Virus record (IMG/VR): IMGVR_UViG_3300006149_000003
DNA: 64,000 nucleotides
Source of the DNA: a virus
Taxonomy: Duplodnaviria; Heunggongvirae; Uroviricota; Caudoviricetes
Reading direction: 5' to 3' (one strand)
Under the pieces are notes generated by a model, which saw nothing but the letters and a program-made list of their open reading frames with translations, made no database searches and had not been told where the DNA came from. Position 1 is the stretch's first letter, and the number at the start of each line of letters is the position of its first letter. This document shows, one piece after another, positions 17,132 through 38,930 of the stretch. Position numbers and translations under genes: made by a program.

Positions 17132-17194
17132 AATTACGATGCTCAAAGGATCTCATCCTTTCTATTAGGAAGCTGATACCAGCCCGTTTTTGCA

Positions 17195-17202
17195 CCCCCC
17201 CC
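17195..17202. repeat. C8 homopolymer tract (in C5-MTase 3' end)
   Basis: Seen directly. Confidence 0.9.
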
Positions 17203-17774
17203 ACCAGCTTCGGCTTTCAGGGCACGGGCCACGGTACTTCCATCGTAAATGCGGTTAGCATCTCCGTTGTAGTCGTTGATATATCCAAGCTGGTGGAGAT
17301 CGTCACTTTCGATAGCCCGATTTTGTTCGTCGCTATTAGGCGATTTATCAAAACTGGCAAGCGCCTTTTCAAAAGCGCCAATACCAGAGAAAAAAGATCC
17401 TACCACCATATCTTCAAAAAGATACGGCATAGCTTCACACAGTTCTCCCATAATGGCACAAAGCACATCCACCACAATGGAATTTCCGGCCTGCTTGTAA
17501 AGCTGAGAGCCGCTACGGTCATTGCCACTGTATAGGTTCTGATTCATTGCGGTTTGTGCCTTAGCGAAGTCTTCGTCTGTGAAGCCCATAAGCCGCCAAC
17601 ACTCTCGCTGGGTGAGCTTTCTCACCCGAAACCCTGGACGGATCGCGATAGGCGTTTGTCCGCCACCCATCCGTGCCGCACTGTTTACACACGGGCAAAT
17701 CCCGTCCGACCGGGGAGATTGGTGTTTCTGAAGACCACCAATCATTGTAATATCGTTCTCAATCACTCTCTTGT

Positions 17775-17783
17775 CCCCCCCCC
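17775..17783. repeat. C9 homopolymer tract at C5-MTase frame junction
   Basis: Seen directly; +1 restores the frame. Confidence 0.9.
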
Positions 17784-18215
17784 GTCAATGGTGCGAATCG
17801 TGCCGCAGACATCATCTCGGAAAAACCGAATGCCCTCGTCACATCGCTGCTCACATACAATCTTCATATCTTCTTCATCCTCCATGGTAATTTCCATAAC
17901 CAGTTGTCTTCGTTTCTTTTTAAGATACTGTTGGATGGTGGTGCCCTTATAGTAATTTGCATCAATGCAATATGCCACTGGTGGTGCAAGCAACACCTTT
18001 ACCAAGTCATTCATTCTTCTCCATCACTCCTGTCATTTGCTGGTTCCCAAAGCCTTTGTAATCGCGGGCCAGCAGTGCCAAGGCTGTATCGCAGTACCCT
18101 TCAAACTTGCTTCCTTTCTTACTCAGTTTCACGCCGGAAAGAGAGCAAATCCCATGAGTGCCTGTCTGTGGAGCCTCGACCTCCGGCTCTGACGGTGTTA
18201 CTGATTGGTTTGAGC

Positions 18216-18224
18216 GGGGGGGGG
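18216..18224. repeat. G9 homopolymer tract (in-frame PPP within C5-MTase fragment)
   Basis: Seen directly. Confidence 0.9.
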
Positions 18225-18689
18225 TAATCATGGCAGCTACTTTATCGTCAGATAGGTAATAGCGCTCGTCAACATGGTCGTCAAGCATATCGACCAGCGC
18301 CTTTTTCAGCGGAATCGGCGTGGGAAACTTGAATTTTCCGTTGTCCAGATCCTTGCGGACGATGACACAATACACACGCTCTCGGTTTTGAGGAATACCA
18401 TAGTGTTTTGCGTTCAGCACCTGCCAATAGACATTGTAGCCGTAGTCTTCCAACTCTTTTACAAAGAGGTCGAAAGTGGTGCGGAAGCGGGAACCAGTAA
18501 TGTTTTTGACATTTTCATAGATGGCAAAGCGGGGCTTCTTTTCTCTCAGGAAGCGCAACCATTCGACGAGCAAAGAAGAACGAGTCTTCTCAATCTCGGT
18601 TGAACCACACTTAGGGCAATGGTCACGCTGATCGTAGTGAGCTTCCAGAGGGTTGTACACATGACCGCAGTGTTTACAAGTCCATGCAG

Positions 18690-18698
18690 CCCCCCCCC
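18690..18698. repeat. C9 homopolymer tract at C5-MTase frame junction
   Basis: Seen directly; -1 restores the frame into a CxxC...CxxC insert and the ENV motif. Confidence 0.9.
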
Positions 18699-18902
18699 TG
18701 TTTGCCCGCTATGCTGAAGTCCTGGCACGGGCTTCCACCAAACATGGTGTTAAAATCTGGAACAGCTTTCTCGTCGGCCTGTGTGATATCACCGATGTTG
18801 GCTGTCGAATCGACACCGTGAATGGCGCAATAGCTTTCTGCGGCGTACTTATCGAACTCGCAGAAAAGGGCGGTTTTGAAATCCAAGGTTCTTACCTCCT
18901 AT

Positions 18903-18931
18903 ATTATAGCGTATTTCGGGCTTCTTGTCAA
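18903..18931 (-). promoter_or_regulatory. sigma-A consensus promoter driving the C5-MTase locus
   Basis: Minus strand TTGACA (18926-18931) - 17 nt - TATAAT (18903-18908), then AGGAGG and TTG start at 18886. Confidence 0.5.
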
Positions 18932-18959
18932 CGATTTTGTTCGTTGTTAATGAAGTTTT

Positions 18960-19486
18960 TTATGCGCTTTTGTCGATCTCCTCAAAGATGATTTGCTTCG
19001 GGAGTATGCTGTAGCACCCATACACGCTACTGAACGGCGGGTTAAGCGACGGTTTTTGATCCGTATAACTCTTGAAGTAAGAGACACGGCGGTTCAGATA
19101 CATAATCTCGAAATCGTGATCTCGGAACATACTGAACCGCCGCTGGCTCTCAAAGAGTCCCACCACACCGACCAGCATGGCAAAGGGGATTTTGAGCTGG
19201 AACAGCCGCTCAAACACTTCACCTTTCAGAGAGTAGGGCGGGTTGCTGATAATATAGTCGCACTGTGGCGGTTCCAACTCAAAGAAATCCTGCCCGTTGC
19301 AAATGTGCGTAGCAATTACGGTATACCCGCGCTGGCGGAACAGCTTTACGAATAGGCTATCCTCCGTGTCAAAGGGGCACCATATCACTGCGGGGGGGGT
19401 GCTAAATACTTGTACAGCGGAGCAATCGCATACTCCGGCGTGTAGAACTCGTCGTTGCCGCTACCGGCAACTTTATCCATCTTCAT
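18960..19486 (-). pseudogene. N6-adenine (NPPY) DNA methyltransferase, frameshifted at G8 tract (candidate phase-variable gene)
   Basis: ATG 19486 with AGGAGG SD gives MKMDKVAGSGNDEFYTPEYAIAPLYKYLAPPPQ-stop. Deleting one G from the 19392-19399 tract continues into ...VIWCPFDTEDS...IISNPPYSLKG (ORF 18960-19388). Confidence 0.7.
19392..19399. repeat. G8 homopolymer tract at N6-MTase frame junction
   Basis: Seen directly; -1 or +2 restores the frame. Confidence 0.9.
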
Positions 19487-19531
19487 AAAAGATTCCTCCT
19501 TGGTCATAAAAGTCTGCTTTCATCCTACTGA

Positions 19532-20086
19532 CTACTTTTTGTTCCCCATCATCGAATCAAGGCCAATCACGTCGGCAAGTTTTTCCCCGATTTGCCTTTT
19601 CACCTCTTCCGTAATCTTTTTCTTGATGTTGTCCGTAACTTCGGTAGTAGCCCTCTTAATTGCATATTCCATATCGTGGTTTACGGCCTTATCAAGAATG
19701 TATTCCAGGCGCGTTTTACAGGAGCCATATCCGGAGGCGGGCTTTCCAGAGCTGTCTACTTTTTGATCCAGGTATTGAGCGCAGGACTCCTTCAACTGCT
19801 CCCGAACGGTTATACCACGCTTTACAACATCTCCCCACCTATCGGTGATGTCTTTAGGCGTGTCAAAAAACTCCTGCATCATAGCATTAAGTTTTTCGCT
19901 GATTTCGTTTTCGAGGGATGCCATTTTTGCGTCTAAGAGTTTTCTCGCTTCGCTTTCCAAAGAGTTTGTGATGTTTGTTCCAACCTTTGCGACAATGCCC
20001 GAAAGAATTTCGTCCCTCAGCCGCCCGTCAAGGTTCTCTTCCTCGTCCAACCAGTCCAAGTTGACTGTTACATTAAATGTTGCCAT
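19532..20086 (-). CDS. hypothetical coiled-coil protein
   Basis: ORF; probable start MATFNV. Confidence 0.35.
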   Translation of the reverse strand: MATFNVTVNLDWLDEEENLDGRLRDEILSGIVAKVGTNITNSLESEARKLLDAKMASLENEISEKLNAMMQEFFDTPKDITDRWGDVVKRGITVREQLKESCAQYLDQKVDSSGKPASGYGSCKTRLEYILDKAVNHDMEYAIKRATTEVTDNIKKKITEEVKRQIGEKLADVIGLDSMMGNKK

Positions 20087-20106
20087 TGCAAAAACCTCCA
20101 TAGTTT

Positions 20107-20937
20107 TTAGAATGAGCACTCACAAGGCAAGTTGCCATCATCTTGGACAAGTTTCCTTGCTGCCGCCCAGAACTTTTGCGGCTTAGTCTTCTCAGATGGT
20201 GGTAATGCTTTTTCTTTGAGCCTGGCAAATTCCATCTCAAAATCTGAAAGATAGCCCTGTTTGAGAATGCTGTATCCGATAGCCGCCTCAGCCTGTTTTG
20301 CTTTCTCCCAGATCTCGGGATAAAGACAATAGACAATAAACCAGTGCTGTTTACCAGCTTTGAGGCAACCGGTGCAATTTGCATGATTGAAAATGCTGTA
20401 GGTCTTCGGACGTTCGATCCCAACCTCTTCAATATTATGAACAGTACGTATCTCCCAGGTCAGCGGGTATTCCGTGTGATATCCCATAGCAGCCATGATA
20501 CCAACCCTACGCTGAATACGATGCTGCTCATTAGTATCAAAGCCGTAGACCAGAGAAATATCGTCCCTTATCTGGGGAGGATTTGTGGGATAGTGCTCGG
20601 ATAACCACTTATGAAACGGTTCGGTCTTTAGCCTGTTTGTGCAGAAAGCGGTTGACTGAGCGCCAGACTTGAACGCTTTAATTTCCATACACACATCAAA
20701 CTGGTCTTTGACTTCCCATCCAGGCATATTGGCATAAGTGATAGGAACGCCCAAATAATCCGAAACCTCATTCTTAAAACGTTTGATATCTTCGTCTTCG
20801 GTACGGGGACATAGGTCATGATTGAGCAAAATCGTGTTCTCTGCCCCGTACCTTCTGACTACCTCCACGGCGGCGATTGCTGAAGAATGACCGCCAGAAA
20901 AACATACGATGTGTTTCATACCGACCACAACCATCAC
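20107..20937 (-). CDS. PP-loop ATP pyrophosphatase family protein (adenine nucleotide alpha hydrolase)
   Basis: N-terminal HIVCFSGGHSSAIAA (SGGxxS PP-loop), C-terminal Cys motif NCTGC...C. Confidence 0.55.
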   Translation of the reverse strand: MMVVVGMKHIVCFSGGHSSAIAAVEVVRRYGAENTILLNHDLCPRTEDEDIKRFKNEVSDYLGVPITYANMPGWEVKDQFDVCMEIKAFKSGAQSTAFCTNRLKTEPFHKWLSEHYPTNPPQIRDDISLVYGFDTNEQHRIQRRVGIMAAMGYHTEYPLTWEIRTVHNIEEVGIERPKTYSIFNHANCTGCLKAGKQHWFIVYCLYPEIWEKAKQAEAAIGYSILKQGYLSDFEMEFARLKEKALPPSEKTKPQKFWAAARKLVQDDGNLPCECSF

Positions 20938-21076
20938 TGGCTGAGGTCAACTGCCTAATCCTCCTAAGCTACTTTCCACAAACCTAAAGTCCGTGTTTGA
21001 ATAATTTCACGCTGTAACAGGCAGCTTTACCATGTACTTATCAATCTTACATGAACCTGGTTTACCAGGATTGGTA

Positions 21077-21352
21077 TTAACTCCTTCCGTTGTTATTGTT
21101 CGTTTGTGAACTCTTGAAGTATTTTCCGATTGTAGCCAGTGTTGCACAGGCCAATGGAATGAAATCCGGGGTAAATCGGGTTGTGTTGAACATTAGGTTC
21201 ATGCCACCAGCGATGGCATTGCCAACACATACTTTTAGTATCCAGCCACCGATCCATGCACACCCAAATGTGAGAACCGGACTGAAAACCAGCAATCCGA
21301 TAAATCCTAAAATGGTCGTTACAATGCCGATACCCTCAAATGTCCTTTTCAA
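21077..21352 (-). CDS. small integral membrane protein
   Basis: 91 aa, two hydrophobic helices. Confidence 0.35.
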   Translation of the reverse strand: MKRTFEGIGIVTTILGFIGLLVFSPVLTFGCAWIGGWILKVCVGNAIAGGMNLMFNTTRFTPDFIPLACATLATIGKYFKSSQTNNNNGRS

Positions 21353-21369
21353 AACTTACACTCCTTTAC

Positions 21370-22376
21370 TTATTCAATAGGCACACCGATATACTCAAGC
21401 ACTCTCTGCATACCAAGACCATGTTCTTCCCACGGCTTCATGCAGTAGCTCCAGAGTTTTGGGTGGGTTGTTTTCAGACGTTGGAAACGGTTCGGTGCCT
21501 TTTCCAGATGAGCGCCAAAGGCACAAAAGACACAGCCAGTACGCTTTTCTCCTGTTGTTGTCCACCCCCCCCGTCAGTCTTAATGATCTCGCCATAGACA
21601 GGTGCATAGGGGATTTGGTAAGTGTAAAGATATTCGAGTACGTCTTCCTCTGTCCAAAACGACATAGGCTGAGAACTGGGTTTCTTGCCAGAAAAGGCGT
21701 TGCACCCCATACGCAACCATGTAGCGCGGCGGGATCGGCTCTCATTCGCCATTGTTGCGATGATAGGCACTCTTCCAGTTTCCTTAGCGTATTTCTTCAT
21801 GGGGCGCTTTTTCATAACAGCACAGCATCGGGAAGATACCTTAAAGGGCGCATCCAGCAGATAACACCATTTCTCACAATTAAACTCTGAGGGTGTCCCA
21901 TTGCTCCGCATAATCTCGCCGTGTAGTTCCTTCCACCGGAAGGAGCCAGGCTTATGCCCGTACTCTACTGTGTCAGCTACACGCTTGGAAACCACAGGAT
22001 ATCCGTATACCTCAATAACTTTTCGGAAATTCATCTCAGGTTTTACCACTACCACATTGTCTCGGCTCATGGCAAATTGGCGAACCTCTGGAAACTCTAA
22101 CCCAGTATCCGAGAACACAGCCGGCACATCAGGATAGATACGCCGCACAATATCAAGGAGTACGGTCGAGTCCTTGCCGCCAGAAAAGGCCACATAGACC
22201 TTGCCATTGTAATGCTGATACCATTCGATGATCCGAGCTGTGGTAATCTGGATTTTGCGGGGAAGAGGCAGACGCTGCATTTCTTCCAGTTGTTCCTTGC
22301 TATGCAAAACGTCCACCTCCTTGCCCGCCACCGCCTCCTCCATCAAACAGATAGAGGAGAAGCAGTAGCAAAGCAC
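21370..22376 (-). CDS. PAPS-reductase/TtcA-like PP-loop protein (frameshifted at C8 tract 21565-21572)
   Basis: VAFSGGKDSTVLLD PP-loop. After the Gly run the current frame gives nonsense; adding one G/C restores a conserved-looking tail GCVFCAFGAHLEKAPNRFQRLKTTHPKLWSYCMKPWEEHGLGMQRVLEYIGVPIE ending at 21370. Confidence 0.6.
21565..21572. repeat. C8 homopolymer tract in PAPS-reductase-like gene
   Basis: Seen directly; +1 restores a conserved-looking C-terminus. Confidence 0.9.
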
Positions 22377-22409
22377 AACCTATGAAGATATAAACCTCAT
22401 TTGACATAA

Positions 22410-22868
22410 TTAACTCCCATGGTCTTCGGTAGCCTTCGGCAGAGCAGGCTGATGAGTAGTAGCCAACCAGTAATTGATGACTTTGTTGTAGCTGTTGTCA
22501 TTGCCCATGAAACGCTTGAGCATAGCGGCCATCAAACCAGTCTCTGCGCTGAAGGTGTCTCCCTGCTGACACTTCACCACAGTCTTCGTACCGTCACTCC
22601 AATAGACAATGGTAGCGGGATCGTTAAAGATCAAACGCTCAATCTCAGGAAGAAGTGTGTCGGAATGCTGCCGCATATGCCGCAGTGCAGCGTTCCAGCC
22701 ATTGTGAAATCCCTCGTGATCCATTGCCGTCTCAACCCCTTTGGATTCAGCAGGCAAAGACAGAAGCCGACGCAAATCACCATTTACTGGTACAGCCACA
22801 AAATTTGCGAGGGGGGGGTGAACCTGAACAGCCCTCAGCGGATACAAACTCATTTCATTGTTACGCAT
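22410..22868 (-). CDS. hypothetical protein
   Basis: 152 aa; AGGAGG SD before ATG; contains in-frame C8 tract near the N-terminus. Confidence 0.35.
   Translation of the reverse strand: MRNNEMSLYPLRAVQVHPPLANFVAVPVNGDLRRLLSLPAESKGVETAMDHEGFHNGWNAALRHMRQHSDTLLPEIERLIFNDPATIVYWSDGTKTVVKCQQGDTFSAETGLMAAMLKRFMGNDNSYNKVINYWLATTHQPALPKATEDHGS
22811..22818. repeat. G8 homopolymer tract near the 5' end of gene 22410-22868
   Basis: Seen directly; currently in frame. Confidence 0.9.
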
Positions 22869-22891
22869 TGCATTTTCCTCCTATAATTTGG

Positions 22892-23812
22892 TTAATGTGC
22901 ATGACGGTCACAGTCATTCAAGACCATAACCTGATTCCAGATATCCTCACCGAGCAAGCCTTTGAACTTTCTCTCCGTCTTGTTCGGGTTATCTGACTTT
23001 TCTACTGCGAAAGGTGCCATATGCCAGCGAATCAAAAGTGCTACTTTCAACCTTTCGTGCAGAGTCAAATCGGTAGTGTGGGCAAAGCTCTCATAAGCAC
23101 CGACACGCTCATGTTGATAAAAATGAGCAATATCTGTAGGTTCACCTTTGGCATTACAGAAAACTTTCGTATACTCCTTGCCAATATCGTGAATCGCTAC
23201 CGCCCGGCCCAAAGAGATATCATTCACCCACTGGGGATACTGTTTGTCGAAATACTCATAGGCCGTTAGCATATGTTGCCCTACAGTAAACTCATGATGG
23301 GGATTATCGTGCTCCAGAGCTGCAAGGCGGGAGAGCAGAAGGCTGATACCGCCGATAAACGGTTCCACACCCTCAACCCAGATTTCGTCCCAGCCTTCAG
23401 CTTCCATAGGGATATCAAAACCCCGGTACATTCGGTCGATCACATTCTCTGGAACACTACGTTCACGGTTGGCGTTGCGCTCTACACAGAGGATATACGG
23501 CGTCGCCATGAAAACGCACACTTTCTTGATCTGGGGATTAACAGCGGTGACACGATGCAGAAATCCCATTCGGCGCTTGTAACTGACATTCGTGGCGTCG
23601 TAGACCACATCTTTACCAGCACGCAAATCGGAGAGCACACGGTCATGGAGCGTCTGGAATACCAGCTCCTGGTGGTTTTGGTCGGAGATGTCACTCAGTA
23701 GCTCTTCACGAATGGTATCACTGGAATGGATCACGGCGTCAGGCAACTTGTTCTCGGCATACCAAGACTTTCCACTTCCAGGAAGACCAACCATCATATA
23801 GAAGCACTGCAT
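22892..23812 (-). CDS. polynucleotide kinase (P-loop) fused to HD-domain phosphohydrolase, Pnkp-like RNA/DNA end-healing enzyme
   Basis: N-terminal MVGLPGSGKSWYA Walker A; C-terminal HDIGK...H...H...D HD motif pattern. Confidence 0.6.
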   Translation of the reverse strand: MQCFYMMVGLPGSGKSWYAENKLPDAVIHSSDTIREELLSDISDQNHQELVFQTLHDRVLSDLRAGKDVVYDATNVSYKRRMGFLHRVTAVNPQIKKVCVFMATPYILCVERNANRERSVPENVIDRMYRGFDIPMEAEGWDEIWVEGVEPFIGGISLLLSRLAALEHDNPHHEFTVGQHMLTAYEYFDKQYPQWVNDISLGRAVAIHDIGKEYTKVFCNAKGEPTDIAHFYQHERVGAYESFAHTTDLTLHERLKVALLIRWHMAPFAVEKSDNPNKTERKFKGLLGEDIWNQVMVLNDCDRHAH

Positions 23813-23813
23813 T

Positions 23814-24617
23814 TTACTTACCCTCCTGTAATTCCATCAGAAACCGCCGCTTCAAAATCTCCACCGTCGCTGTCTGTAGCACCTGATCGGCGTGCTGATT
23901 GATTGCGAGAGGCACTGTATCCATATATTGCTTTTTATCGGCGATCATGGAATCAACTGCCTCCTGCATAAGCTGCCGCGCCTCCTCTAAGGTGTGACAC
24001 CCTCTTTTTACCTCTACAAGGTAATCCGACTGTTTGCTAACCAGACAATCAAAATAATTTTCGCCGGCCATATAGCGGGTCATAAATTCCCGCATCCGCA
24101 AGGCATGATGAAGCTGCTTAGGGTCGTACCCAAATTGCTCAATCTTGGCAAGAGCGGCGGGATAAGGATGCTCCATAGCGTGTTGCTTTTCCAACGCCAT
24201 ACCCAGCAGACAACTCATACCAGCATAGTTGTTATAGCGGGCAATATCTTCTCTGGCGTCCAACACCGATTGAAACAGATCGGTGTAGAGCGGGTTGATA
24301 ATGCAGTAGGGCGTGAACAGAATCTCAATGAAATTGACGTTTTGTTTGCGAATACACTCAAACATGAGCCGAATATCCTTAAAGTCCACGTGCTCATCGT
24401 TTTCCATAACATGGGTGGTGCTGACGGGCTTGTGGGTAAGAACGAAATCTGAGAAGCTGGGGAGTACGATTGCCTTGGTATCAATATCGCTACTCTCATA
24501 ATCCAGTTTGTAATTTTGTGAACCTTGCAGGAACAGGCCAACCCACGCATCTCCGAAGTGTTCTTGAACGGTAGCCAAATGCTCTTGCATCCGAGCCATA
24601 ATGCGCTCCTTATTCAT
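23814..24617 (-). CDS. Pol-beta-superfamily nucleotidyltransferase domain protein
   Basis: GSQNYKLDYESSDID (GS...D.D NTase motif), 267 aa. Confidence 0.5.
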   Translation of the reverse strand: MNKERIMARMQEHLATVQEHFGDAWVGLFLQGSQNYKLDYESSDIDTKAIVLPSFSDFVLTHKPVSTTHVMENDEHVDFKDIRLMFECIRKQNVNFIEILFTPYCIINPLYTDLFQSVLDAREDIARYNNYAGMSCLLGMALEKQHAMEHPYPAALAKIEQFGYDPKQLHHALRMREFMTRYMAGENYFDCLVSKQSDYLVEVKRGCHTLEEARQLMQEAVDSMIADKKQYMDTVPLAINQHADQVLQTATVEILKRRFLMELQEGK

Positions 24618-24921
24618 CGCTACACTCCTTCTTTCTCACACAGTCTCGTAAAATCCGCTGATAGAGGGAGGGGTCATACCCCTCCATATCAGCCCAGAAC
24701 ATCAAATACTCTGTGGTGTACTGATCGGTCACATCACCGGAGACATCGTAAAGCCGGCCACCGATTTCCTGAACGAAGTGGTTAATCACTGGCTCATACA
24801 TCATGTTTCCGCCAAATCTCTCTTGAAGAATAAAGGCAAACCAGTAACAGCAGCCATTTAGAAAAACCTCCTCAGAGCCTTTGAAGTTCTGGATAAAGTT
24901 GAGGATTGTAGACTTATTCAT
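24610..24921 (-). CDS. hypothetical protein
   Basis: 103-aa ORF. Confidence 0.3.
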   Translation of the reverse strand: MNKSTILNFIQNFKGSEEVFLNGCCYWFAFILQERFGGNMMYEPVINHFVQEIGGRLYDVSGDVTDQYTTEYLMFWADMEGYDPSLYQRILRDCVRKKECSDE

Positions 24922-26402
24922 CCCTCTTCTTCCATAACCTCCACCTCCTGGGCTTCCTCCATATCCGGCGCAGCGGCGGTATCTTTAATAAGCCCCTCCA
25001 GTGCCTTGAAGTAGAAGTTCTTATGCTTGTAGGCCGCAAACTTGGGACGATTGACAATCCGACACACAACGCCCTCTCGAATATGGGTTTTGCCAACAGG
25101 GTCGGGGCCGTCATAATACCTCTCTGCGATAGCTTTGATGTATTCGCCAGCGTCCACAGCTTGGGGAGAACCCACAGCGTCGGGAAGCTGAACCATATCC
25201 GGGATAAAGCAACGCCAGAACAGCGGCACACACTTGACACCCATCTGTTCACAGCGATAACGCATGAAGTCGGGCGGGTACTCCACCACATCACCATCCT
25301 CGTTGGTCATGGTCATCCGGTAGACATAGATGTCGGATTTGGGAACAGGCTCGGCAGATACTCCAGAACCGTCTGCTGTCGTTTTCTTGCCGGTAGGATC
25401 GCAGCCATAGCTAAAGAAAGTGGTTTTGCCGTACTGTTTGGAAAACTCCTTGTCACCAATCTTGGCGTTATTGCTAGGAGACATGATGGGCGTGCCATCA
25501 TCCGTGAAACCCACCACCTCATAGTAGACCTCCTCGCCTTTGTGGAGCTTCCCTTCAAAAATCTTGGCGTGCTGTTCACGGAAAGCATTGCTACCATAGA
25601 AACCTCCGTCAAAGCTATCCAACACTACACGGCGGGTTCCGGTAACATAACCCCAATCATAGATGGGCGTCCGCTCAATCATAGAGCGTAGCCAGTTCGG
25701 AGTTTTATCGCTCTCAAACAGCCGCTTTTGCAAACCGTTCTTATACTTGTAGCCTTGAAGCACAGGAAGATAGCCAGTACGCTGACTGGTGCCGTGCATT
25801 TTCAGCGTGATCTCTACCAGGTCGCCGGCACGGAAAGCAGACAGATTGTAGGCAAGCTGCTCTGTATCGGCGTGTTCCATGAAGAGCGGAGAAATCGGAT
25901 CGGACTTCTTGCGGACACGACTTCCGCCGCCAGGACTTCCACCACTACGGTTGCGCTTAGGAATGTACTTCTCACAGATGGTGATACCGTTCACGACAGA
26001 AATTGTGTCTCCATCTTTCAGCAAAGAGGTATCAATAAATCCCTCCATGCAGGAGATGGGCAGAAACAAGCCATCACTTTTTTCTCCTCGGAGCTTCAGC
26101 GCCTTAATGTTGCGCTTCTCTGGATCGAGGTAGCCGCCGGCGGGGTTGCCGTTCTCATCTTTTCGCCGCAGAAGGTCGTTCTTCTGAGCGAACTCTACAC
26201 CGAGCTTGCCGTCTACGGGGAAGTAGACCCCCAGCTGGTCAGGTTCGGTTCCAAGATCCACAATTACCGTGTTCCCAAAGCACTCGCCACAGAGCAGACG
26301 ATCAGCGTTGGTGTGCTTACGCAGATTGCGGATTTTGGTGACATACGCACAATACATTTGCATCTCTCCTTTGATTTTATTCGTTGTTAATAGAAAAAAC
26401 AA
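24918..26402 (-). CDS. ATP-dependent RNA ligase-like nucleotidyltransferase with N-terminal tRNA-binding (EMAP/Trbp111-like) OB domain
   Basis: Motif I KSDG (LKLRGEKSDGLF); N-terminal YVTKIRNLRKHTNADRLLCGECFG resembles tRNA-binding OB domains; probable start MQMYCAY. Confidence 0.55.
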   Translation of the reverse strand: MFFLLTTNKIKGEMQMYCAYVTKIRNLRKHTNADRLLCGECFGNTVIVDLGTEPDQLGVYFPVDGKLGVEFAQKNDLLRRKDENGNPAGGYLDPEKRNIKALKLRGEKSDGLFLPISCMEGFIDTSLLKDGDTISVVNGITICEKYIPKRNRSGGSPGGGSRVRKKSDPISPLFMEHADTEQLAYNLSAFRAGDLVEITLKMHGTSQRTGYLPVLQGYKYKNGLQKRLFESDKTPNWLRSMIERTPIYDWGYVTGTRRVVLDSFDGGFYGSNAFREQHAKIFEGKLHKGEEVYYEVVGFTDDGTPIMSPSNNAKIGDKEFSKQYGKTTFFSYGCDPTGKKTTADGSGVSAEPVPKSDIYVYRMTMTNEDGDVVEYPPDFMRYRCEQMGVKCVPLFWRCFIPDMVQLPDAVGSPQAVDAGEYIKAIAERYYDGPDPVGKTHIREGVVCRIVNRPKFAAYKHKNFYFKALEGLIKDTAAAPDMEEAQEVEVMEEEG

Positions 26403-26422
26403 AAAAGAATAAATATAGGGGG

Positions 26423-27577
26423 TTAGGAATACATAGCTTTCAGCCTATGCGCCACACTCGCAACACCCTGAGCAGCTTGACGCATTTCATCTTCCGTAGT
26501 ATCAAACCCCATTGAAATACGGACGGTACAGGCAGCGCTTTCCTCAGATAATCCAATTCCACGCAGAACGTGTGAAGTTGTGGCGTCGGATGCGCTGCAA
26601 GCGGAACCAGCAGAAAGGTAGATGTCTTGCTGATCCAGCAACAGAAGTAAAGATTCGCTGTTGACTCCCGGCAGTGTCAAGCTGATGATAGCGGAGGAAC
26701 GCCGGTCGGTATCGCCGTTGATATGAAACTCTCCATCCATTTCGACATTAAGCTCATTCAAAAACACATCCCGCAAATGTGCCCACTGTGCCATCTGCCT
26801 TGGCAGGCGCTTGGTCGCTATCTCTGCCGCTTTGCCAATCCCCACGATTCCTGGTACATTCTCGGTGCCGCCTCGCAATCCACGCTCCTGACCTCCACCA
26901 TAAACCCACGGTTCCTTTCTGATTCGATTGGAGATATACAGCACTCCAATTCCCTGGGGTGCTCCGAACTTATGACCGGAGAGAGATAGGAAGTCCACAT
27001 TATAGGCGTGAACGTCGATTGGAACGTGACCCGCCGCCGCTACTGCGTCTGTATGGAAAGGAACGTCATACTTTTTACAAAGTGTTCCGATTTCTTTGAT
27101 AGGATTCACCGTTCCAAGTTCGTTGTTGACCCACATGACAGAAACGGCACCCAGCTCTTTCTTGTTTTCAATGATAAGCCGCTCCAAATCATCCAGGTCT
27201 ACCGAGCCGTCCGACCAAACCCTTGCGTATTTCATAACAACGGGGAGCGGGCATACACACGCATTTTTCAACGGTTCAGAAATCGAATGATGCTCAATCT
27301 CGTCCGTAAGGACAACGTGTTTGGTCAGACATCGGAACCAGGCGTTGTTCGCCTCAGTTCCGCCGGAGGTAAAAAATATCTCCGAAGGGTCTGCACCGAT
27401 CATTAGCGCTACCTGTTCTCGTGCCTTTTCGATAGCGTGGCGGGCGTTGATACCCTGGGAATGGATACTGCTGGGGTTTCCAACATGACACGTCTGAAAC
27501 CATGGAAGCATGGTATCCAAGACTTCGGGAAAAGGTGCGGTCGATGCCGCATGGTCGAGATAGACCAATGATATCAC
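26423..27577 (-). CDS. cysteine desulfurase (class V aminotransferase, IscS/NifS family)
   Basis: DHAASTAP...GNPSSIHSQG, PLP-lysine SGHKFGAPQGIGVLY, active-site SAGSACSA. Confidence 0.85.
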   Translation of the reverse strand: MISLVYLDHAASTAPFPEVLDTMLPWFQTCHVGNPSSIHSQGINARHAIEKAREQVALMIGADPSEIFFTSGGTEANNAWFRCLTKHVVLTDEIEHHSISEPLKNACVCPLPVVMKYARVWSDGSVDLDDLERLIIENKKELGAVSVMWVNNELGTVNPIKEIGTLCKKYDVPFHTDAVAAAGHVPIDVHAYNVDFLSLSGHKFGAPQGIGVLYISNRIRKEPWVYGGGQERGLRGGTENVPGIVGIGKAAEIATKRLPRQMAQWAHLRDVFLNELNVEMDGEFHINGDTDRRSSAIISLTLPGVNSESLLLLLDQQDIYLSAGSACSASDATTSHVLRGIGLSEESAACTVRISMGFDTTEDEMRQAAQGVASVAHRLKAMYS

Positions 27578-27660: not shown

Positions 27661-29220
27661 TTAGTCGTTGACAACAGGACGCAGTGCGTCCTCGATAGGC
27701 TGGTAGCGCTCAGTGTTCAGCGTTTCCAACAGACACTCATAGGGATCGAGCTTGCCACTCATCACCATCTGAGCGATGTTGACGGAGAAACCGCTGACCA
27801 GCGCCACGCCCATGTCGTTCTCCCTAACGGGAATCGTCCCAGAGCGGCTGGCAACATTCCAGAACACCAATCTGGGCATTTTGTAACCTGCCTGCTGATA
27901 CCGCCTATTGATCTCGTCAAAAAGGCGGGCGTTTGGCCTCTGCGTGTTGTAGCTCCACCGATCTCTCGAAGGAGCACCGCAGCTGGCACAAGCATCAAAC
28001 TCCATATCGGAAATGATGAGAATGTTGGCAGGCAAGTCATTCTGATTCATATGCTTAGAAACCGCTGTTTCCAGGATGAGATCAAAGACTGCCTCCACGT
28101 TGGTATTGGCTCCAGCATGGCAAGCATGGACAATTTGAAGCCGCTCATAGAGGTTCTTGCCACTGGAGATGTCGAGGAGCTGCGGTCTGTCGGAGAAGGA
28201 CATATACTGATCCTTGAATTGACCAGAAGATCGCTCGGCAAAATAGATCGCCAAGGCGTTTGCCACCTCCAACGGACGAGCGGAACTCCCAGGGAGCATC
28301 ACCCACTCCATACTTCCGCTATCGTCCATAACCACCATCGTGTTTCCACAACCCTGTACCGTGTCAGGCAAATTCTGCCACAATGCCTCCAGTGTGGCGT
28401 CCACGCCGTGGCTCTGACGATACTTGTTGACAATATCGTGCGGGAACAGCGTACCAGCGTTGATCTTGGCCTCGCCGTTCTCCACCCGACTAAGGAACTC
28501 ACGGCGGCGCTCCTCATCGTGGCGGAGGAAAGCCTTGTTGTAAATCAGGTTGGCACGGGAGGGGACTCGCTGGTAATCAATCCCGTCCCAATCGTTCTTG
28601 GACATCTGCTGCTCCACAACAACCAGGTAACGGGACAGGCCAGAAAGAGTATGCCGATAGGTACGCTCGGTCATATTCAACCCTTCGCACAGAATACGGG
28701 CGTAATGACGAGACTCCTTAGAAGAGGACTTGCGGCGCGGCATCCACTTTGCCAGCAGAGAGATCGGCTTCTGCTCGACGTTGTTATGCAGATCGTCATG
28801 CAGCTGCCTTGCCACCAGCTCAATCACCTTATCGCCCACCGGCGTATCCAGCAGACACCAGAGATCGTCCCAACGCCCATACTCAGGCACCAACGACAGC
28901 ACCGGTGTAACGTACTCCGGAAACTTCTTTGCCATCGGCACCATAGCCGCACGAAACAGTCGGCGCTCACCCAGCCCGCCACGCACATCGCGGGCAAAGA
29001 ACAGCCACTTCATCGCTGTCACCTTATCCTCGAAAAACGCCTGGGTGAAGCGATCCGCGATCTCCTTAACGCTGGCGTTACGGAGAGACGCCACGGCAAA
29101 GTTGAGATCCAGCAAAGATCGACCAGTGGTGCGATAGCCGACCGCCCCATTCTCGGTAACAGAGATATTGTTTGCGCCGTCCAGCATCGTGTCCTTGACA
29201 CTTTCCATAAAGTTGCTCAT
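27661..29220 (-). CDS. vWA (MIDAS) domain protein, DUF2828/Ro60-TROVE-like
   Basis: 519 aa; MIDAS VVMDDSGSM in C-terminal half; N-terminal alpha-helical region. Confidence 0.5.
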   Translation of the reverse strand: MSNFMESVKDTMLDGANNISVTENGAVGYRTTGRSLLDLNFAVASLRNASVKEIADRFTQAFFEDKVTAMKWLFFARDVRGGLGERRLFRAAMVPMAKKFPEYVTPVLSLVPEYGRWDDLWCLLDTPVGDKVIELVARQLHDDLHNNVEQKPISLLAKWMPRRKSSSKESRHYARILCEGLNMTERTYRHTLSGLSRYLVVVEQQMSKNDWDGIDYQRVPSRANLIYNKAFLRHDEERRREFLSRVENGEAKINAGTLFPHDIVNKYRQSHGVDATLEALWQNLPDTVQGCGNTMVVMDDSGSMEWVMLPGSSARPLEVANALAIYFAERSSGQFKDQYMSFSDRPQLLDISSGKNLYERLQIVHACHAGANTNVEAVFDLILETAVSKHMNQNDLPANILIISDMEFDACASCGAPSRDRWSYNTQRPNARLFDEINRRYQQAGYKMPRLVFWNVASRSGTIPVRENDMGVALVSGFSVNIAQMVMSGKLDPYECLLETLNTERYQPIEDALRPVVND

Positions 29221-29298: not shown

Positions 29299-29422
29299 TG
29301 GAGCGGCAGGTAGGAATCGAACCTACGAATGGCAGCTTGGCTTCCTTTTTACCTTGCTGTTAGTGAAACTTCCGCTTCACATTTTTTATAGGGCTGCTGT
29401 GTTACCACTTCACCACTGCCGC
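29299..29422 (-). tRNA. tRNA gene with about 49-nt insertion in anticodon loop (isotype unresolved)
   Basis: Acceptor GCGGCAG/CTGCCGC, T-arm GTAGG-TTCGATT-CCTAC, CCA encoded, anticodon stem GCAGC/GCTGC enclosing 56 nt instead of 7. Confidence 0.55.
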
Positions 29423-29636: not shown

Positions 29637-29760
29637 TGCCAGGGGTGGGAATCGAACCCACGACCACGGGATTAAAATTCCTTCAATCATTGCTGTGAGC
29701 GTTTCATACGATACGCATTGATACGCGCTCTATCCACTGAGCTACCCTGGCTTGAGGTGA
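29637..29760 (-). tRNA. tRNA-like gene with intact acceptor, D- and T-arms but disrupted/inserted anticodon region
   Basis: Acceptor GCCAGGG/CCCTGGC, D-arm GCTCAGTGGATAGAGC, T-arm GTGGG-TTCGATT-CCCAC; 64 nt between D- and T-arms containing the conserved ...CTCACAGCAAT module. Confidence 0.4.
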
Positions 29761-29956
29761 TAGGGTATGGGCCACTCTCCCATACAAACAGTGTTCTCCA
29801 CGGTTGCGCACCCGTTTCAATAAACATGACGTTTACAATCTTTTCGTCTATGCTACACCGTTTTACATAAGGGTTCATCCGTCGTTTTTGTACATCGGGC
29901 AGCTACTCCCAATGCGCATGGTCAGCTATTCCATGACGCCCTTCTTTTTAGTCACA

Positions 29957-38856: not shown

Positions 38857-38930
38857 ACCTTGATTTTGTTCGTTATTATAAAAAGTTGTGGATGGAGGCT
38901 TTTGAGTAGAGTCCTCCAAGAACCACGCCC

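Follow-up and report, generated by a model that had tools for sequence, protein, structure and literature searches.

A phage-encoded cysteine desulfurase and two PP-loop proteins as a possible sulfur relay of a phase-variable DNA-modification island

Why would a bacteriophage carry a cysteine desulfurase of its own, and which enzymes does it supply with sulfur? The question is raised by a 64,000-nucleotide (nt) stretch of the caudoviricete record IMGVR_UViG_3300006149_000003 (hereafter the window, meaning the whole stretch of DNA that was analysed), which stems from a large gut Clostridia phage or prophage. A preliminary description had noted an IscS/NifS-type cysteine desulfurase (26423-27577) together with two PP-loop proteins, referred to here as PP1 (20107-20937) and PP2 (21370-22376), and had proposed that this set thiolates either tRNA or, in the manner of DndA and DndC, DNA. 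We found all three open reading frames (ORFs) at these coordinates on the minus strand, as are the further genes, tRNA-like elements, motifs and the promoter for which window coordinates are given below. In our reading, to which we assign a probability of roughly 45%, the phage desulfurase feeds two sulfurtransferases of the PAPS (3'-phosphoadenosine-5'-phosphosulfate) reductase type that belong to a phase-variable DNA-modification island. Most likely, the three enzymes would bring sulfur into nucleic acid, with phage DNA as the probable and tRNA as the less likely target, and one part of this relay, namely the pairing of PP1 with a cysteine desulfurase, appears to have a structural precedent in Protein Data Bank (PDB) entry 21fy.

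The desulfurase and PP1

The desulfurase is a class I (IscS/NifS-type) enzyme of 384 amino acids (aa) that depends on pyridoxal phosphate (PLP), an assignment that was already made in the preliminary description and that Pfam, NCBIfam and PADLOC matches as well as an IscS alignment bear out. It spans the full-length Pfam Aminotran_5 domain (PF00266; E-value 1.7e-72, residues 5-365, profile positions 1-368 of 371) and is 35% identical to E. coli IscS (E 1e-73). Both the PLP-binding lysine of IscS (K203, corresponding to IscS K206) within an SGHK motif (26969-26980) and the persulfide-forming catalytic cysteine (C327, corresponding to IscS C328) within an SAGSAC loop (26597-26614) are retained, from which we infer that the protein would be active as a desulfurase. 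Its NCBIfam bit scores all stay below the respective equivalog cut-offs (NifS 366 versus 531, DndA 303 versus 480, IscS 297 versus 643), and it is a member of the IscS/NifS group to which no named orthologue can be assigned. Among the PADLOC models, it matched SspA (5e-114) and DndA (3e-111), the former being a model that cannot tell SspA from ordinary IscS/NifS proteins.

That the best NCBIfam model, NifS at 366 bits, is one of the iron-sulfur (Fe-S) type speaks for a rather different role. As a general auxiliary, the desulfurase might supply the Fe-S enzymes of the phage (an NrdG-like activase, PP2 and perhaps PP1) or the infected cell, with no dedicated relay and with the three genes as mere neighbours in an early-gene array. 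Besides, the window encodes NrdD along with an NrdG-like activase (Fer4_12). On the other hand, no IscU, NifU or SufU scaffold was found among the scanned ORFs (here as in all partner-gene searches below, the scan took in ORFs of the 64-kb window but not every one of them), and the evidence presented next on PP1 and, further below, on related loci also counts against this account, which we regard as somewhat unlikely.

PP1 (20107-20937; 276 aa, with a probable start at M7, 20919) is a PptA-like/SspD-like protein of the PP-loop fold. It had no Pfam or NCBIfam match, even at E 10, and matched the generic phage 'PAPS reductase' family phrog_424 (2.2e-29). In PADLOC, which has no curated cut-off, it matched SspD (6.6e-14) over profile positions 1-201 of 277, the two being of near-equal length, and the SspD model was also matched by PP2. 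Within the PDB, PP1 hit chain C of entry 21fy, a protein named PptA (phmmer 4.1e-12; BLASTP 4e-17, 27% identity), which was also the sole match of the PP1 family profile (5.7e-18). A search with the window desulfurase uncovered the E. coli IscS sequence in the very same entry. PptA was thus solved together with IscS, which suggests a direct partnership with a cysteine desulfurase for the PP1 family and, by homology, for PP1 itself; it also argues against a desulfurase that only serves Fe-S supply. Others have evidently worked on the PP1 family before, as the PptA structure attests. The sequence of PptA is that of a hypothetical protein (QGH73774.1; 100% identity) from Vibrio phage vB_VhaP_VH-5, a 42-kb T7-like phage in which its gene follows the RNA polymerase gene. 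While PptA and PP1 agree in size and fold class and are both encoded in phage early regions, PptA is a solo gene whose product uses the host IscS, whereas PP1 is accompanied by a phage-borne desulfurase and a second PAPS_reduct enzyme.

The resemblance of PP1 to PptA extends to a variant PP-loop, a single cysteine in an A/F-C-T..LK motif, a CxxC motif and a flexible E-C-S tail. In PP1, the PP-loop reads SGGHSS (residues 14-19, 20881-20898; SCGAPS in PptA), with S14, G15, G16, H17 and S19 being invariant. The invariant C99 is part of FCTNRLK (20626-20646) and occupies the position of the CC..K motif of PAPS and APS (adenosine-5'-phosphosulfate) reductases, its cysteine being common to PptA; C188 and C191 make up an invariant CxxC (CTGC, 20365-20376; CVGC in PptA); and C272 and C274, likewise invariant, form a CEC (20116-20124) in a flexible, low-confidence C-terminal tail (IECS...C in PptA) that recalls the ECGLH motif of CysH. 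Both SGGHSS and CTGC had been recognised in the preliminary description, which, however, put the latter at the C-terminus; it sits in the C-terminal third, and the protein ends in CECSF. In a family alignment of 32 sequences C12, C99, C188, C191, C204, C272 and C274 were invariant, and these seven cysteines and S-G-G-H-S remained so among PP1 sequences down to 58% identity. Three of them (C99, C188 and C191) fall at the positions of APS-reductase cluster ligands (by hhalign for the CC..K segment), suggesting that PP1 may hold a cluster bound by three cysteines and accept persulfide on a tail cysteine. In TtcA and TtuA, a cluster held by three cysteines activates sulfur. The AlphaFold2 (AF2) model of PP1 had a predicted local distance difference test (pLDDT) score of 90; when it was compared with the PDB by Foldseek, generic PP-loop folds only were retrieved (MnmA, TtuA, CysH, LarE; template modelling (TM) scores 0.3-0.4), an MnmA-tRNA complex being the best match (7.7e-4, TM-score 0.31), and searches of the PDB and BFVD combined gave nothing beyond generic PP-loop/PAPS-reductase matches. 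One PP1 homologue (P0093, 66% identical) was called as a protein of 440 aa that includes AAA_33/KTI12 domains; this may be a fusion of PP1 to the kinase of the RNA-repair cassette described below, or a read-through artefact.

The degenerate PP-loops of PptA and PP1 could also be taken to mean that PP1, like PptA, is mainly a desulfurase binder or inhibitor that blocks host Dnd/Ssp-type defence or tRNA thiolation and is no transferase. It would be in line with this that PptA was deposited with a host-type IscS and no phage partner, and that PP1 usually occurs solo in phage early regions. However, an inhibitor role leaves the phage's own desulfurase unexplained, the invariance of the seven cysteines and of S-G-G-H-S points to catalysis, and PP1 is found together with another PP-loop enzyme, a canonical one, so that we consider a hijacking of IscS very unlikely. 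Under the relay reading, in contrast, the desulfurase would take up cysteine sulfur as an enzyme persulfide and would pass it on to PP1, as homology to PptA suggests, and it would probably also provide PP2 with sulfur or with an Fe-S cluster.

PP2 and its homopolymer switch

PP2 (21370-22376, probable start ATG 22343) is a PP-loop enzyme of the PAPS_reduct family. The SGGKDS motif and the cysteine-rich tail ascribed to it beforehand were both confirmed, but the gene is split by a frameshift: as assembled, the intact ORF comprises 21474-22376 (300 aa), and one extra G is needed to reach the tail. With nine G residues, the product is extended to 335 aa, the addition comprising RTGCVFCAFG and a conserved tail. 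PP2 matched Pfam PF01507 (PAPS_reduct; 1.4e-19, 71 bits versus a cut-off of 22.5), which PP1 did not, as well as phrog_424 (2.7e-41), and its family is very large in phages, with more than 7,800 matches and full-length homologues of 312-324 aa. The canonical PP-loop SGGKDS (22167-22184) is invariant in the family alignment. A Cys-Cys dyad, RCCAV (21816-21830), which aligns with the K-V-E-P-M segment of CysH, stands at the position of the CC cluster ligands of APS reductase and is followed by a CxxC (CVFC, 21523-21534), such that CC...CxxC corresponds to the APS-reductase cluster ligands. Across the family, there is little or no variation in SGGKDST, the CC dyad, GCNAF, CxxC and C301; in the numbering of the family alignment, in which C173 and C174 stand for C183 and C184 of the RCCAV dyad and C271 and C274 for the cysteines of CVFC, C174, C271 and C274 were invariant and C173 nearly invariant. 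The best PADLOC defence-model match of PP2 was BrxP (7.5e-20), yet only over profile positions 117-177 of 779, that is, the PP-loop region, and the DndC match (E 0.0014) was likewise limited to the PP-loop (residues 40-77). Judging from these motifs and matches, the most fitting description of PP2 would be that of an adenylating sulfurtransferase which resembles DndC and BrxP and probably contains an Fe-S cluster.

Being among the most frequently reported auxiliary metabolic genes of phages, 'PAPS reductase' genes are a familiar sight, and viromics papers usually read cysH as sulfate assimilation. Applied to this locus, PP1 and PP2 would be true CysH-type PAPS/APS reductases that, together with the desulfurase, raise sulfate assimilation or cysteine turnover of the host. 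The match of PP2 to Pfam PAPS_reduct agrees with this view, as do the PHROG name (phosphoadenosine phosphosulfate reductase) and class (auxiliary metabolic genes), the fact that CysH and APS reductase are the nearest solved folds of PP2 (Foldseek 4e-8, TM-score ~0.6 on the target) and the E-C tail of PP1. However, PP2 scored far under the cut-offs of the cysH (41.9 versus 165 bits), PAPS_reductase (32.9 versus 254) and APS_reductase (25.9 versus 235) models, and its motifs differ: it possesses the adenylating type of PP-loop where E. coli CysH shows SSSFGIQ, and it ends in ...EYIGVPIE rather than in ECGLH. The neighbours, moreover, are DNA methylases and replication genes, not genes of sulfur metabolism, and a phase-variable switch (see below) is what one would expect of an epigenetic or surface trait and not of core metabolism. 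We therefore hold a role in sulfur assimilation to be extremely unlikely. Two different PAPS-reductase members next to a phage desulfurase and DNA methylases, one of them from a family solved with IscS, would instead point to nucleic-acid sulfur chemistry.

Several more specific identities were rejected. In profile searches for TtcA, MnmA, ThiI, QueC and PAPS_reduct, only the last was matched, and only by PP2. The scores of PP2 against TtcA (18.7 versus 272 bits) and LarE (16.8 versus 150 bits; both NCBIfam) were far from the cut-offs, and neither PP1 nor PP2 had a family-level NCBIfam or Pfam match to MnmA, ThiI or QueC; the suggestion that PP2 is a TtcA-like enzyme, made with tRNA thiolation to 2-thiocytidine (s2C), 2-thiouridine (s2U) or 4-thiouridine (s4U) in mind, can thus be dropped. 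To call PP1 and PP2 paralogous, as had been done, is generous, for jackhmmer did not detect the one with the other and hhalign gave a probability of 1.7%; they are not close paralogues and have only the superfamily in common, although both match phrog_424. The preliminary description had also reckoned with two members of this generic phage family that lack sulfur-chemistry residues. Membership holds for both proteins, but the residues are present.

The frameshift in PP2 coincides with a homopolymer of eight G (G8; C8 on the plus strand) at 21565-21572, which behaves like an ON/OFF switch, as the earlier suggestion of homopolymer control had it. The position of the tract is conserved across related loci and its length varies, being 8 in 13, 9 in six and 10 in one of them. 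Strains that are ~99% identical and stem from different samples likewise differ, two carrying G8 (L056 and L059, 267-aa products) and one G9 (L058, 312-aa product), and truncated and full-length protein clusters of the PP2 family are both abundant. Since the CxxC lies downstream of the tract and is lost at G8, this length would be expected to give a null. More generally, G/C runs of 8 nt or longer are strongly enriched: nine were observed in the 64 kb (1.25 expected), seven of which fall within 17195-22811 (5.7 kb; 0.11 expected). We rejected a sequencing error as the cause of the frameshift, since ~20 independent assemblies, and also strains that are ~99% identical, retain the tract at differing lengths. 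Phase variation is a more economical explanation than either programmed -1 frameshifting or transcriptional slippage at G8, considering that genomes with G9 or with A+G8 in frame exist and that the methylase tracts behave alike.

These latter tracts are found in the DNA methyltransferase genes directly downstream of PP1 (17143-19388), whose orthologues have C5 methylase matches in Pfam. G/C tracts of 8-9 nt (at 17195, 17775, 18216, 18690 and 19392) split this region into several ORFs, neighbouring ones of which would be joined by C8 at 18690 or C10 at 17775, and tract lengths vary among relatives. Going by these features, the region looks like several phase-variable switches in one phage locus, and PP2 appears to be in the same switchable set as the adjacent DNA methylases. 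A further C8/G8 tract (22811-22818) is located near the 5' end of the gene of a 152-aa protein, u152, for which relatives yielded no alignment of orthologous tracts. In the methyltransferase region there is a perfect (12/12) sigma-70-like promoter (18931-18903). Phase-variable contingency DNA-modification genes are similarly marked by an intragenic G/C tract whose position is conserved but whose length differs between near-identical strains, a frame switch by +/-1 nt and clustering with methyltransferase genes; they differ from the present locus in that the switched gene here is of the PAPS-reductase type rather than a methylase, and that the carrier is a phage. In the proposed mechanism, poly-G slippage would turn PP2 ON (G9) or OFF (G8) in the way it would its methylase neighbours, and the phage population would therefore comprise mixed modification states.

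Target and partners of the putative relay

Within this mechanism, PP1 and PP2 would thiolate nucleic acid, most likely phage DNA, by means of a backbone phosphorothioate or another thio-mark, in the setting of a variable anti-restriction DNA-modification island that runs into the methyltransferases. Context favours DNA over tRNA as the target, the relevant observations being the methylase neighbours, the common type of switch, the gene order of one particular relative and the distribution of PP1 in small phages. That relative (L129; PP1 82% and desulfurase 59% identical) displayed the order Dam methylase, desulfurase, one ORF, u152, PP2, membrane protein, PP1 and C5 methylase, and its locus contained neither RNA-repair nor tRNA-like genes. 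Another locus (L067) combines an N6/N4 methylase, PP1 and PP2. A divergent element of a Eubacteriales metagenome-assembled genome (L085, 5924-10337) has a run of three consecutive PAPS_reduct-type genes (270, 327 and 274 aa), of which the second is PP2-like and the third PP1-like, ahead of a 500-aa C5 DNA methylase; a Lin1244_N replication-type protein and an MmcB-like nuclease are encoded upstream. Among 68 unrelated PP1 loci, a small sample probed with few methylase queries, nine had a recognisable methylase no more than 3 kb from PP1 and three had one farther away, despite more sequence being available at the greater distances. PP1 relatives also occur in the nin region of the lambdoid phage Huey and, in the T7-like phage mentioned above, following the gene for RNA polymerase. 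The general logic put forward earlier, i.e. a desulfurase that feeds PP-loop sulfurtransferases, accordingly draws support from the catalytic residues, the PptA-IscS entry, the SspD and BrxP matches, the invariant cysteines and the L129 gene order. The adjacency of the desulfurase to PP2 and PP1 inside the methylase island of L129 is a further argument against an enzyme devoted to Fe-S supply alone.

Alternatively, the desulfurase might serve the neighbouring cassette of Ro-like, RNA ligase, nucleotidyltransferase and kinase-HD genes, with s4U, s2U or s2C being introduced into phage tRNA-like RNAs or repaired host tRNAs by PP1, PP2 or host enzymes as the thiolases. In all of ~30 relatives, with identities as low as 44%, the desulfurase gene was flanked by the Ro-like and RNA ligase genes, also where PP1/PP2 are absent, and tRNA-like genes lie immediately upstream. 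Besides, PP1 has weak structural matches to MnmA (7.7e-4) and TtuA, and tRNA-Ser(GCU), the sole canonical tRNA of the phage, is a TtcA substrate in E. coli. Yet no tRNA-thiolase model was reached by either protein, as detailed above for TtcA, MnmA and ThiI, and the TM-score of the MnmA match is no more than 0.31. In L129, the desulfurase, PP2 and PP1 are retained, with RNA-repair and tRNA-like genes both absent, and PP1 and PP2 recur beside DNA methylases. No tRNA genes are annotated near the lambdoid and T7-like PP1 relatives in the stretches fetched, and modification of phage tRNAs, as envisaged in the preliminary description, is not supported as the role of the family. We judge thiolation of RNA to be unlikely.

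Several systems of nucleic-acid sulfur modification invite comparison. SspABCD, which carries out single-strand phosphorothioation, resembles the present locus in that the desulfurase matches the SspA and PP1 the SspD model; it differs in that the setting here is a phage, not a defence island, and that neither SspB (DUF4007, nickase) nor SspC (ATPase) was found among the scanned ORFs of the window. DndABCDE, which acts in double-strand DNA phosphorothioation, similarly unites a NifS-like desulfurase and a PP-loop protein of the PAPS-reductase family, marked by SGGKDS, a Cys-Cys dyad and a 4Fe-4S site that is likely, DndC being described as an Fe-S protein of this family (PMC10853773). Here, however, the DndC match covers the PP-loop only, the desulfurase misses the DndA cut-off, and neither DndD (an SMC-like ABC ATPase) nor DndE was detected among the scanned ORFs, although a small DndE could escape; a complete DndA-plus-DndC system, as had been considered, is not supported. 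The window ORFs of at least 490 aa are all assigned otherwise (NrdD, DNA polymerase, primase-helicase, methylase-helicase, Ro-like protein and RNA ligase). From type 4 BREX comes BrxP, an enzyme of the PAPS-reductase type to which the phosphorothioation of DNA in gut bacteria has been attributed (PMC12914056) and which is the best PADLOC match of PP2; unlike BrxP, PP2 has neither DUF4007 nor a Mog1p/PsbP-like domain, and BrxC, PglZ and BrxL are absent from the window. As for the IscS-dependent tRNA thiolases (TtcA, TtuA/Ncs6, MnmA, ThiI), they have the PP-loop fold and desulfurase-derived sulfur in common with the enzymes studied here, but there is no family-level sequence match, the TM-scores are in the above-mentioned range of 0.3-0.4 and the contexts are DNA-related in the present case.

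A number of observations weigh against a relay acting on DNA. Neither a DndD/SspC-type ATPase nor a DndE/SspB-type partner was found among the scanned ORFs, and an NTPase is treated as required for phosphorothioation (PMC12914056, PMC12707154); with DNA as the target and without the known partners, the chemistry or the partners must therefore differ from those of known systems. The PP-loop of PP1 lacks the usual aspartate, and ATP pyrophosphatase activity is consequently not assured. Our literature searches yielded no paper on PptA or its function. Moreover, three relatives (L004, L005 and L006) retain the desulfurase and the RNA-repair genes, with no PP1 or PP2 within +/-10 kb: two of them (L004 and L005) are colinear with L042 minus exactly the PP1 segment, PP2 being absent too, and in L006 PP1, PP2 and the methylases are all missing at that position. 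Crass-like phages have a 43%-identical desulfurase and no PP-loop gene within 10 kb of it. Conversely, a desulfurase was found within 8 kb in none of the ~68 unrelated PP1 loci, which belong to bacterial genomes, meaning that its pairing with PP1 is confined to one phage clade and that shared ancestry alone could explain it. The persistence of the desulfurase in relatives and crass-like phages devoid of PP1/PP2 and the normally solo occurrence of PP1 in other genomes also speak for a general role in Fe-S supply.

As we read these patterns, PP1-family proteins normally use the host IscS, and the present clade brings a desulfurase of its own. This enzyme probably serves more than one client. Because relatives without both PP-loop enzymes still keep it, a further role beyond PP1/PP2 would be expected, be it Fe-S supply or an RNA-related function. 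A host-derived moron, as had been contemplated for the desulfurase, was rejected: all eight contigs fetched for its homologues P0332 (59% identical) and P0296 (61%) show the same phage cassette.

A more far-reaching proposal, which we consider doubtful at present, is that the phage possesses a minimal, autonomous DNA sulfur-modification system, composed of its own desulfurase, a PptA/SspD-like protein and a DndC/BrxP-like Fe-S enzyme and placing phosphorothioate or a different thio-mark on phage DNA without DndD/SspC or DndE/SspB. One of its writers would be phase-variable by way of the poly-G tract, alongside the methylases, lending the phage shifting epigenetic disguises against restriction and modification-dependent defences. 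Should DNA indeed be the target, phosphorothioate-type marks could be written with far fewer components than in Dnd or Ssp, phages would be using such marks offensively, and sulfur marks could be phase-variable in the same way as methylation. The natural G8 (off) and G9 (on) variants and the relatives in cultured Oscillospiraceae isolates (see below) make for an experimentally convenient system.

The RNA-repair cassette and other window content

From 32461 down to ~17143, every gene is on the minus strand and closely packed, and from the Ro-like gene to PP1 there is one direction throughout, with intergenic gaps of 1-139 nt. A scan of this array for promoters and terminators returned counts at chance level and does not inform on operon structure. 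In the direction of transcription, the array starts with a Band_7/SPFH protein (31529-32461), tRNA-Ser(GCU) and three tRNA-like genes, continues with a Ro60-like protein directly upstream of the desulfurase (27661-29220; DUF2828/DUF7788, a von Willebrand factor A (vWA) type RNA-binding protein), the desulfurase, an RNA ligase (24918-26402), a YunG-like protein (24610-24921), a nucleotidyltransferase (23814-24617) and a P-loop kinase joined to an HD domain (22892-23812), and proceeds via u152 (22410-22868), PP2, a small predicted membrane protein (21077-21352, 91 aa) and PP1 to a 195-aa protein, g195, and the methyltransferases. The RNA-repair enzymes, whose presence had been reported before, are thus substantiated by Pfam, PHROG and NCBIfam matches, and their genes (22892-26402) separate the desulfurase from PP2. 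Over many gut phage contigs, the cassette of Band_7, tRNA-like RNAs, Ro-like protein, desulfurase, RNA ligase, YunG-like protein, nucleotidyltransferase and kinase-HD protein is kept. A review of jumbo phages makes no mention of these enzymes. Of the smaller genes, u152 had no match in Pfam, PHROG, PADLOC or the PDB and accompanies desulfurase, PP2 and PP1 in L129; the membrane protein is present in only some relatives; and g195 had no relatives in the PDB and is not conserved among relatives of the locus.

Between them, the Band_7 and Ro60-like genes bracket the tRNA-like genes. The tRNA cluster of the preliminary description (31085-29302) reduces to one canonical tRNA, tRNA-Ser(GCU), while the remainder consists of three tRNA-like genes with insertions of 43-55 nt and one sub-threshold match. 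The three genes (30257-30372, 29637-29751 and 29302-29422; 115-121 nt) match the Rfam tRNA model from end to end, with the insertion at the anticodon loop, and are not detected by ARAGORN. Sets of two or three are also found directly upstream of the Ro60-like gene in relatives (L021, L037, L052, L056 and L006). The insertion forms a hairpin with compensatory base changes, which is followed by a near-invariant ACAGCAA. These could be intron-bearing tRNAs that are spliced by the kinase-HD protein and the RNA ligase, or Y-RNA-like mimics for the Ro-like protein. The fifth element (29953-30028; 25.6 bits against an Rfam gathering threshold of 29) has mispaired acceptor positions and may be a decayed tRNA.

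The kinase half of 22892-23812 has matches to bacterial Pnkp as well as to L-seryl-tRNA(Sec) kinase (PSTK, 2.4e-12) and KTI12. In view of the PSTK match, a PLP enzyme and odd tRNA-like genes, a conversion of tRNA-bound amino acids is conceivable; the desulfurase, however, is much nearer NifS (1.7e-109) than SepCysS (6.4e-09 to 1.1e-11).

Further replication and nucleotide genes in the window encode, besides NrdD and the NrdG-like activase, ThyX, a deoxynucleoside monophosphate (dNMP) kinase/nucleotidase, a large DNA polymerase, a primase-helicase, an exonuclease, Erf and a single-stranded DNA-binding protein (SSB). A megablast search of the region against GenBank phages gave no match. A 100% identical copy of PP1 is encoded on a 110.8-kb scaffold (QXXE01000004.1, L127) assigned to 'Clostridiaceae bacterium strain 9', and close relatives (L060-L063) reside on contigs of 134-388 kb from cultured bacteria, namely Dysosmobacter segnis (BX15), Hominicoprocola fusiformis (CLA-AA-H269) and one Oscillospiraceae isolate; relatives may therefore have cultivable hosts. 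Finally, a 1041-aa protein encoded at 35794-38919 combines DNA methyltransferase-like and helicase regions; it matches phrog_24008 and, more weakly, DarB-like antirestriction/methyltransferase proteins, and its gene is a further candidate DNA-modification or anti-restriction gene of the phage.

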